In this document: one piece after another, positions 20,984 to 23,669 of the stretch
How positions within the stretch are numbered: position 1 is the stretch's first letter
Layout: every line of letters starts with the position of its first letter
DNA from: Escherichia coli
Lineage (GTDB): Bacteria > Pseudomonadota > Gammaproteobacteria > Enterobacterales > Enterobacteriaceae
Length of the DNA: 64,000 nucleotides
Strand: one strand, 5' to 3'
NCBI RefSeq assembly: GCF_041886205.1
Contig: NZ_CP169029.1
Position numbers and translations under genes: made by a program
Notes under the pieces: generated by a model
Told to the model about the DNA's origin: nothing
The model's database searches: none
What the model saw: only the letters and a program-made list of their open reading frames with translations

Positions 20984-22102
20984 ATGAAATACGATCTCAT
21001 CATTATTGGCAGCGGTTCCGTAGGCGCTGCCGCCGGGTATTATGCAACCCGCGCCGGTTTAAACGTGCTAATGACCGACGCCCATATGCCACCACATCAA
21101 CACGGCAGCCACCACGGCGATACGCGATTAATTCGCCATGCTTATGGTGAAGGCGAAAAGTATGTCCCGCTGGTCCTCCGCGCGCAAACGCTGTGGGATG
21201 AACTTTCCCGCCACAACGAAGATGATCCCATTTTTGTACGCTCTGGTGTCATTAACCTCGGCCCGGCTGACTCCGCATTTCTCGCCAACGTCGCCCACAG
21301 CGCCGAACAGTGGCAACTCAACGTTGAAAAGCTCGATGCGCAAGGGATTATGGCCCGCTGGCCAGAAATACGCGTCCCGGACAACTACATCGGCTTATTT
21401 GAAACTGATTCCGGTTTTTTGCGCAGCGAACTGGCGATTAAAACCTGGATCCAACTGGCGAAGGAAGCGGGCTGTGCGCAACTGTTCAACTGCCCGGTCA
21501 CCGCAATTCGTCATGACGATGATGGCGTAACTATTGAAACCGTTGACGGTGAGTATCAGGCGAAAAAAGCGATTGTCTGCGCGGGAACATGGGTAAAAGA
21601 CCTGCTCCCGGAGCTGCCTGTCCAGCCCGTACGTAAAGTATTTGCCTGGTATCAGGCCGATGGCCGCTATAGCGTGAAGAATAAATTCCCGGCGTTTACC
21701 GGTGAACTGCCCAATGGCGATCAATATTATGGTTTTCCGGCAGAAAACGACGCGTTGAAGATTGGCAAACATAACGGAGGCCAGGTTATCCATTCAGCGG
21801 ATGAACGTGTTCCGTTTGCGGAAGTGGTCAGCGATGGTTCGGAAGCCTTCCCGTTCTTGCGCAATGTATTGCCGGGTATCGGTTGCTGCCTGTACGGCGC
21901 TGCCTGCACCTATGATAATTCGCCTGACGAAGATTTTATTATCGATACCCTACCCGGCCACGATAATACACTGCTCATTACCGGCCTGAGTGGGCACGGT
22001 TTTAAATTTGCGTCAGTTTTAGGGGAAATAGCTGCCGATTTTGCGCAAGACAAAAAAAGCGATTTTGATTTGACGCCATTCAGGCTTTCCCGCTTCCAAT
22101 AA
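20984..22102 (+). CDS. solA: N-methyl-L-tryptophan oxidase
   Basis: 372-aa ORF with FAD-binding [14 protein letters not shown]-terminus. Confidence 0.9.
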
Positions 22103-22111
22103 TCATCATTA

Positions 22112-22136
22112 CGGCCTCCAGAATGAGGCCGTTTTT
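22112..22136 (+). terminator. Intrinsic terminator after solA
   Basis: CGGCCTC-loop-GAGGCCG hairpin followed by TTTTT. Confidence 0.65.
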
Positions 22137-22149
22137 ACAGGAGTATTTA

Positions 22150-22263
22150 ATGCGTCGGCTGTTGCACTATCTCATCAATAATATTCGCGAGCATCTGATG
22201 CTTTATCTTTTTCTCTGGGGATTGTTGGCAATTATGGATCTGATCTATGTGTTTTATTTTTAG
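22150..22263 (+). CDS. yceO: Small membrane protein YceO (short ORF, not in the ORF track)
   Basis: ATG at 22150 preceded by AGGAG; 37 codons [37 protein letters not shown], hydrophobic; position between solA and yceJ. Confidence 0.5.
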
Positions 22264-22523
22264 TTTTCCGCACTGACATAAACTGACAAATATTTAATCT
22301 CCCTTTCATTTAGCGTGAAAAATTGAATGAGATTATTCCTGCTTCTACAGCACTCACCAGACATCTCTGATGCTGAACCCACTAAACTTATGAAGATTCT
22401 TTCATTATTAATTCAAAATTATTGAAATAAAAATAAATATCATTCAATTTGTTATTTTTGTGTTGCAATTCATTCTCCGACACGCCATTTTCTTTCTCTC
22501 GCAAATTCGTATTGGATGCACTT

Positions 22524-23090
22524 ATGTCATTCACAAATACCCCTGAACGCTATGGTGTTATATCTGCGGCCTTCCATTGGCTAAGCGCAATTATTGTCTA
22601 CGGCATGTTTGCTTTAGGTCTGTGGATGGTCACGCTCAGTTATTACGATGGCTGGTATCACAAAGCACCCGAACTGCATAAAAGCATCGGTATTTTGTTA
22701 ATGATGGGGCTGGTTATTCGCGTTCTGTGGCGTGTCATATCTCCACCGCCGGGTCCGCTGCCGAGTTATTCGCCCATGACTCGTCTTGCCGCAAAAGCTG
22801 GACATCTCGCATTGTACCTATTGCTGTTCGCCATCGGCATCAGCGGCTATCTGATCTCAACTGCCGATGGTAAACCGATCAGCGTTTTTGGCTGGTTTGA
22901 CGTCCCCGCGACCCTTGCCGACGCTGGCGCACAGGCAGACTTTGCCGGTGCCCTGCATTTTTGGCTCGCGTGGAGCGTCGTAGTACTGTCCGTTATGCAC
23001 GGATTTATGGCCCTGAAGCATCATTTCATCGATAAAGACGACACTCTGAAGCGCATGCTGGGAAAGTCGTCATCTGACTATGGAGTATAA
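22524..23090 (+). CDS. yceJ: Cytochrome b561 family protein
   Basis: Track ORF trimmed to MSFTNTPERYGVISAAFHWL (188 aa); 4-TM b561-like. Confidence 0.85.
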   Translation: MSFTNTPERYGVISAAFHWLSAIIVYGMFALGLWMVTLSYYDGWYHKAPELHKSIGILLMMGLVIRVLWRVISPPPGPLPSYSPMTRLAAKAGHLALYLLLFAIGISGYLISTADGKPISVFGWFDVPATLADAGAQADFAGALHFWLAWSVVVLSVMHGFMALKHHFIDKDDTLKRMLGKSSSDYGV

Positions 23091-23093
23091 AAA

Positions 23094-23669
23094 ATGAAAA
23101 AAAGCCTGCTTGGTTTAACCTTCGCGTCCCTGATGTTCTCTGCCGGTTCAGCGGTTGCCGCCGATTACAAAATTGACAAAGAAGGTCAGCACGCCTTTGT
23201 TAATTTCCGCATCCAGCACCTTGGCTATAGCTGGTTATACGGCACCTTTAAAGATTTCGACGGTACTTTTACCTTTGACGAAAAAAATCCGGCTGCCGAT
23301 AAAGTGAATGTGACAATTAACACCACCAGCGTCGATACTAATCACGCCGAACGCGATAAACATCTTCGCAGTGCAGATTTCCTCAATACCGCAAAATATC
23401 CACAGGCAACATTCACCTCCACCAGCGTGAAGAAAGACGGTGACGAACTGGATATTACCGGCGATCTGACGCTGAATGGCGTAACCAAACCCGTCACGCT
23501 GGAAGCGAAATTAATTGGTCAGGGCGACGACCCATGGGGTGGTAAACGTGCAGGCTTCGAGGCCGAAGGCAAAATTAAGCTCAAGGACTTCAATATCAAG
23601 ACAGATTTAGGTCCAGCTTCTCAGGAAGTGGATCTGATTATTTCAGTGGAAGGCGTACAGCAGAAGTAA
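23094..23669 (+). CDS. yceI: Periplasmic polyisoprenoid-binding protein YceI
   Basis: 191-aa ORF with signal peptide. Confidence 0.9.

Follow-up and report, generated by a model that had tools for sequence, protein, structure and literature searches.

The short open reading frame at positions 22150 to 22263 of the window, the 64,000-nucleotide stretch of Escherichia coli DNA that was analysed, is the known gene yceO, already catalogued in E. coli and in the Enterobacteriaceae. Taken as a whole, the data are very probably best explained by a genuine yceO that is translated from a start codon giving 37 residues, is transcribed by read-through from the upstream gene solA, and encodes a single-span helix for which binding to a partner protein is the working hypothesis. 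To the existing annotation the analysis adds a case that the start given for K-12 is probably nine codons too far upstream, as well as a conserved layout in which solA, a hairpin and yceO follow each other, and a set of invariant residues. The features of the locus on which the argument relies are listed below.

22100..22102, plus strand: solA stop codon TAA, 47 nt upstream of the yceO ATG
22111..22136, plus strand: GC-rich hairpin ACGGCCTC-CAGAAT-GAGGCCGT followed by a T5 run (from folding; 8-bp stem)
22123..22125, plus strand: upstream in-frame ATG, the start of the 46-codon form in K-12 MG1655, probably not native
22139..22143, plus strand: Shine-Dalgarno AGGAG, 6 nt 5' of ATG 22150 (anti-Shine-Dalgarno duplex; equivalents in many genera)
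22150..22263, plus strand: yceO coding sequence, 37 codons and TAG, the form used by PGAP and Pfam
22177..22194, plus strand: codons 10-15, juxtamembrane motif NNIREH
22195..22257, plus strand: codons 16-36, predicted transmembrane helix including W23 and D30
22237-22239, plus strand: D30 codon GAT

The preliminary description, made from the letters alone, had proposed a hydrophobic ORF of 37 codons at this place, preceded by a properly spaced AGGAG and lying between solA and yceJ, and had named it yceO. All of this holds, and at a length of 37 codons it is plausible that the supplied ORF track passed it over. The window sequence reads ATG at 22150-22152, then 36 sense codons and TAG at 22261-22263, which gives a product of 37 residues with a GRAVY of 0.96 from a coding sequence with a GC content of 0.38. 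The AGGAG motif at 22139-22143 is separated from the ATG by the 6-nt spacer TATTTA. It is flanked by a 372-codon solA ORF with its end at 22102 and by yceJ, which begins at 22524. A mechanical ORF search that takes the first start after a stop returns 22123..22263, 46 codons, because of an in-frame ATG located 27 nt upstream of 22150; the preliminary description had therefore picked the second in-frame ATG, without stating it. The computed mass is about 4719 Da for the 37-residue form and about 5897 Da for the 46-residue form, and window positions 22150 and 22123 correspond to 1119420 and 1119447 in MG1655.

That this is a known, annotated gene follows from RefSeq/PGAP, MG1655 and Pfam, all of which carry yceO. 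The RefSeq/PGAP coding sequence named YceO family protein (WP_001253418.1) occupies exactly 22150..22263, while the K-12 MG1655 record (NC_000913.3, yceO, b1058) has 141 bp and 46 codons, equivalent to window 22123..22263. The two main annotation sources thus differ on the start, that of MG1655 lying 27 nt further upstream. The protein matches Pfam DUF2770 (PF10968) with 79.9 bits against a cut-off of 25 (E 1.3e-22), residues 1-36 covering positions 1-36 of the 36-position model. Both forms of the protein score 79-80 bits, and the model begins at Met10 of the long one. The whole-model score, the single hydrophobic helix of about 37 residues, the signature residues and the position 3' of solA all place YceO in this family. 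Neither a model for YceO in NCBIfam nor a relative of it in a profile search of the PDB was found. In E. coli itself, a 701-nt stretch around the ORF was present in 5424 of 5426 complete genomes, at a median of one place per genome, and is annotated there as solA, YceO family protein and yceJ.

An ORF of this size alone is within what chance would give, as 73 ORFs of at least 20 residues were listed in 4.5 kb. It is more than a chance ORF because of the Pfam match, the conservation of the frame in 80 other genomes and the synonymous bias of the substitutions. Homologues were collected in several ways. A word-indexed search returned mainly Escherichia and Shigella sequences. An exhaustive HMMER search gave 38 cluster representatives reaching down to about 50% identity, which share the core MRRxxxxLxNN[IV]REH...LW...D..Y; the N-terminal extensions carried by database homologues bear no relation to each other. 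Finally, 100,044 species genomes were scanned with a profile-derived pattern, NN[IV]REH[FL][MI][LVI], that fixes codons 10-18. This yielded 109 confirmed loci, 80 of which were kept, from about 20 genera of Enterobacteriaceae including Escherichia, Citrobacter, Salmonella, Enterobacter, Klebsiella, Raoultella, Kosakonia, Leclercia, Lelliottia, Cedecea, Buttiauxella, Siccibacter and Phytobacter, among others.

Over all loci the 37 codons align without a gap, and the ORF counted from the aligned start has 37-38 codons in nearly all of 81 loci. Among 75 unique coding sequences, the pooled pN/pS was 0.285 in the yceO frame against 0.855 and 2.49 in frames +1 and +2, and the median dN/dS was 0.16 against 0.82 and 3.07, respectively. 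Since the scan pattern had fixed codons 10-18, pN/pS was recomputed after their removal, which gave 0.37 compared with 0.80 and 2.33 in the shifted frames. Column entropy at codon positions 1, 2 and 3 was 0.78, 0.28 and 1.31, and stop codons interrupt every other frame in 56-75 of the 75 sequences, while none occurs in the frame of yceO. The sequence comparison indicates that the frame, the length and the amino-acid sequence of YceO are under purifying selection. Conservation of the frame across Enterobacteriaceae, which the preliminary description had named as a check, is thus borne out across the 80 orthologous loci, with 37-38 codons kept and a synonymous bias present, and the case illustrates that a first reading of raw sequence can detect a genuine gene of only 37 codons.

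A few copies are damaged. In Salmonella enterica subsp. arizonae (L057) a stop replaces the W23 codon, and L075 carries a frameshift at the 3' end. Several E. coli database entries (P0085, P0089, P0091, P0097, P0098, P0054 and P0067) lose the frame beyond residue 20 or 30, approximately, close to the T5 and G4 runs of yceO, which may reflect either sequencing errors or real lesions. In addition, two database proteins labelled YceO (P0116 and P0121) have long N-terminal extensions with the sequence of the SolA C-terminus. These extensions are gene-calling or frameshift artefacts that come from ORF calls extending out of the 3' part of solA into yceO, not fusions.

Comparison of the loci also bears on the start codon. 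At the place of 22150, 74 of 81 loci have ATG, five have GTG and two have another codon, and both exceptions have a start one codon upstream (ATG in L082, TTG in L022). By contrast, the codon aligned with 22123, nine codons further upstream, is ATG in four Escherichia loci only. Three further species of the genus have TTG in its place, and outside Escherichia the position holds a non-start codon everywhere except for a TTG in L078. In 24 of the 81 loci an in-frame stop lies inside the nine upstream codons. Within Escherichia these nine codons contain three amino-acid-changing and three silent sites, compared with about four changing sites and many silent ones in the 37-codon core, the numbers being small in both cases. 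The signals for initiation point in the same direction. The best duplex with the anti-Shine-Dalgarno sequence reaches -6.9 kcal/mol for ATG 22150 and only -1.7 kcal/mol for ATG 22123, and a purine-rich GGAG, AGGA or GAGAG is found at the equivalent place in many of the genera. Upstream of ATG 22123 there is no Shine-Dalgarno motif; the sequence found there, CCUCC, is identical and not complementary to the anti-Shine-Dalgarno. Moreover, this ATG falls within the loop of a GC-rich hairpin (22111-22132, 8 bp), where its G is paired while its A and U are predicted to be unpaired. The sequence evidence gives good support to the view that translation starts at ATG 22150 by means of AGGAG 22139-22143, and probably not at 22123.

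A native product of 46 residues made from ATG 22123, either alone or as an Escherichia-specific isoform next to the 37-residue one, is accordingly judged unlikely. In its favour, the frame in E. coli is open from 22123 and has an ATG there, of which two bases would be unpaired in the loop, b1058 is annotated as 141 bp in MG1655, and the 46-residue sequence is the one given in studies by ribosome profiling and mass spectrometry (PMC10746267, PMC12529367). Against it stand the weak duplex behind a CCUCC, the hairpin in which the ATG is embedded, the confinement of this ATG to four Escherichia loci and the in-frame stops that cut the extension elsewhere. To these may be added the lack of any sign of protein-level constraint on the nine extra codons and the fact that both the Pfam model and PGAP begin at Met10. 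On the comparative evidence, the 46-residue K-12 start is not borne out. One of the two peptides targeted for native YceO, of 11 residues, exists only in the 46-residue form; in PMC12529367 it was seen only with a plasmid-borne 46-codon ORF placed behind a vector ribosome-binding site. Its detection is not informative about where native translation begins. Should Met10 be the true first residue, the assay for this 11-residue peptide could never detect chromosomal YceO. The shorter form should be taken into account in the design of tags, deletion boundaries, synthetic peptides and targeted mass spectrometry for YceO.

On its upstream side, yceO has the same neighbours throughout: in each of the 80 loci the gene immediately before it, in the same orientation, is solA, which bssS precedes in turn. 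Downstream, yceJ-yceI follow in 66 loci. The other 14 lack them, although in two of these the contig ends just after yceO. yceO is kept without yceJ-yceI in Klebsiella, Raoultella, Buttiauxella and Pluralibacter. In Klebsiella trhO comes directly after yceO, and in Klebsiella spallanzanii trhO and lpxL do. The loci L063, L066, L067, L070, L078, L080, L028, L065, L076 and L081 have no yceJ-yceI after yceO. The presence of solA in all loci, together with the absence of yceJ-yceI from 14, therefore ties yceO to solA and not, as a leader, to yceJI.

Between the solA stop and the ribosome-binding site of yceO, a GC-rich hairpin is found in nearly all loci, with a stem sequence that varies by genus. 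An RNAalifold consensus over 20 genera contains a hairpin of seven pairs, and at three of the seven both sides have changed with pairing kept, for example from CG to UA in seven sequences. In E. coli the hairpin is followed by a run of no more than five T residues, and many genera have no U run at all. A consensus terminator scan of 21800-22700 called no terminator, this hairpin included, which it missed because the T run is borderline. The element at 22111..22136 is a putative weak or leaky solA terminator or attenuating hairpin; outside Escherichia and Citrobacter, terminator may be the wrong word, since many genera are without a U run. In Buttiauxella sp. A111 (L076, 2440-2515) the arrangement is different: solA ends there in a TGA that is part of an AGGTGA, 7 nt upstream of the yceO ATG, and no hairpin is present. 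By its sequence, this layout points to translational coupling between the two genes.

With respect to transcription, a consensus promoter scan of 21800-22700 found no promoter-like site on the plus strand. A possible yceO promoter within the 3' end of solA, made of TTGACG at 22070-22075 and AATAAT at 22098-22103, was considered and rejected, the two elements being 22 nt apart. The yceO mRNA would come mainly from solA transcripts that read through the conserved hairpin or weak terminator, and such a leaky terminator or attenuating hairpin may be what keeps YceO scarce, which fits its very low abundance.

Protein-level data are found in the literature. Immunoblots in PMC12529367 show YceO tagged with SPA at its chromosomal locus, the amount being lower than after plasmid induction by a factor of at least 10,000. 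The same source scores YceO as '+' in top-down mass spectrometry. The immunoblot documents that yceO is translated in vivo. Two other papers (PMC8765455, PMC12997748) list yceO as an acid-stress small protein, and ribosome profiling under acid stress revealed no significant change in yceO (PMC10746267, supplement file 7). The reported phenotypes point, as a hypothesis, to a role in acid-stress tolerance. Elsewhere in the literature, yceO expression was reduced in UPEC during acute urinary tract infection in mice, the gene appears in a table of genes affecting gallium sensitivity, a yceO mutation was recorded in a motility-evolution experiment, and yceO lies inside a 26.5-kb deletion.

Downstream of yceO, about 40 of the 66 loci with a yceJ have the ATGs of the two genes at a distance of 372-378 nt. 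As this distance recurs across many genera, the length of the spacer, about 260 nt, appears to be constrained. The fold of the 276-nt spacer between yceO and yceJ gave z = -1.2 and no evidence for a structured RNA. Several short elements were observed in it. A direct repeat, CTGACAtaaaCTGACA, with a period of 10 occupies 22273-22288 and begins 10 nt after the yceO stop; TGAC(A/G)-N5-TGAC(A/G) is kept in 16 of 17 aligned genera, the second copy in L056 being TTTACA. In most genera the second copy reads TTGACA, with a hexamer resembling TAAAAT or TAATTT about 16 nt later. On its sequence, this repeat could be a candidate distal promoter or a binding site of the response-regulator type. Further downstream, the palindrome TTCAAAATTATTGAA (22412-22426) lies within a conserved block and retains a TCAA...TGAA core in most aligned genera. 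At 22463-22491, a conserved TTGCAA, 17 nt and a conserved CATTTT follow each other about 30 nt before the yceJ ATG. Palindrome and TTGCAA/CATTTT pair probably represent the core promoter of yceJ-yceI with its operator. The consensus promoter scan of 21800-22700 did not call this putative core promoter. The sole sigma-70-like match in that interval is on the minus strand (22447-22418, TTGAAT-18-AATAAT) and points towards yceO; it is below chance expectation, one site being found where 2.3 are expected, and it overlaps the conserved palindrome.

The protein is simple in its predicted architecture. AlphaFold2, run with an alignment of 19 sequences, gave one continuous helix over residues 2-36 with a mean pLDDT of 94.9. 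Residues 16-36 have a mean Kyte-Doolittle value of 2.0, and the amphipathic residues 1-15 include three Arg and one Glu (+3/-1). The membrane peptide anticipated in the preliminary description agrees with this hydrophobic segment and single predicted helix. The positive-inside rule, applied to the basic N-terminal residues 1-15, leads to a predicted topology with the N-terminus inside, the C-terminus outside and almost no periplasmic tail. YceO would hence be one continuous helix with residues 1-15 in the cytoplasm and residues 16-36 spanning the inner membrane. Among 61 unique proteins, D30 is present in all 61 and W23 in 57, and Y19, L22, A27 and Y33 are strongly conserved. N10, N11, R13, E14 and H15 are invariant in the scanned loci, a result partly forced by the scan pattern; in the HMMER homologues, collected free of that pattern, NN[IV]R[ET][HN] is kept, with E14T and H15N as single exceptions.

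Other readings of the locus were weighed against a protein-coding yceO with a function of its own. Known type I toxins have a patchy, repeated distribution. As a hydrophobic membrane toxin of this kind, controlled by an RNA that is antisense to it or overlaps it, YceO would recall the Hok, Ldr, TisB, Ibs and ShoB classes, since it is likewise a short hydrophobic helix, a single one, with a very low native level, and the weak minus-strand site at 22447..22418 is directed towards it. The likeness ends there, which leaves this reading very unlikely. yceO is present in one copy and strictly keeps its place behind solA throughout about 20 genera, so that instead of a patchy or multi-copy distribution a family-wide synteny was found, and no cognate antisense RNA was detected in what was a limited test. 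Matches like the minus-strand site were, as seen above, fewer than chance would give. A search of 21500-23200 against Rfam returned no family, the one lncRNA match having an E value of 0.45 and lying far under the gathering score, and novel RNAs would escape such a search. Moreover, arabinose-induced overexpression of YceO is routine in PMC12529367, and no toxicity is reported.

It is even less probable that the ORF serves as a leader or upstream ORF, regulating the yceJ-yceI operon by being translated and not through its product. yceO does lie upstream of yceJ on the same strand, and the recurrent distance between the two ATGs would suit such a role. Nevertheless, selection acts on the amino-acid sequence itself, yceO is retained where yceJ-yceI are absent, and about 260 nt with their own conserved promoter-like blocks separate the two genes. 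Least probable of all is that the conservation belongs to a non-coding RNA or DNA element in which the ORF is incidental, an idea to which the short, AT-rich region (GC 0.38) and the adjoining conserved non-coding blocks could lend themselves. It is effectively refuted by the three-base periodicity, with an entropy of 1.31 at third against 0.28 at second codon positions, and by the low pN/pS that is specific to the frame, which alone is free of stops; the region has no Rfam match either, and the tagged YceO was detected in PMC12529367.

For a genuine YceO protein of 37 residues, the closest analogies are found in architecture. AcrZ, MgrB, MgtS and CydX are small single-pass modulators of the E. 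coli inner membrane that dock onto a larger membrane protein. YceO resembles them in having no more than 50 residues, in lacking any domain besides a single predicted transmembrane helix, and in being kept in enterics, but it has no sequence similarity to any of them, so that the likeness is one of architecture only. AcrZ binds AcrB (cited in PMC12529367 as ref. 3), and YceO belongs to the same laboratory's catalogue of small proteins as the modulators of the AcrZ type. By analogy, YceO is hypothesized to be a partner-binding membrane modulator, which would act by binding a larger membrane protein as other single-span bacterial proteins of at most 50 residues do. A polar juxtamembrane motif together with a buried acidic residue in a helix of 37 residues would be expected of a peptide that docks on such a protein, and the likely contact surfaces would be the NNxREH motif and the intramembrane Asp30.

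A more specific and rather improbable proposal makes YceO the second cistron of a solA-yceO unit in which the hairpin sets a low ratio of YceO to SolA. The helix, through NNxREH and an Asp30 located in the outer leaflet, would connect the inner membrane with the flavoprotein oxidase SolA or with a different partner, or would serve as a proton-sensitive switch. If this were true, the reported acid-stress phenotype would be accounted for, and the experiments based on the 46-residue form, namely the plasmid constructs and the 11-residue peptide, would have studied a non-native N-terminus. For a small protein kept across about 20 genera of Enterobacteriaceae, the arrangement of solA, hairpin and yceO, together with the invariant intramembrane Asp, may offer handles for finding its function.
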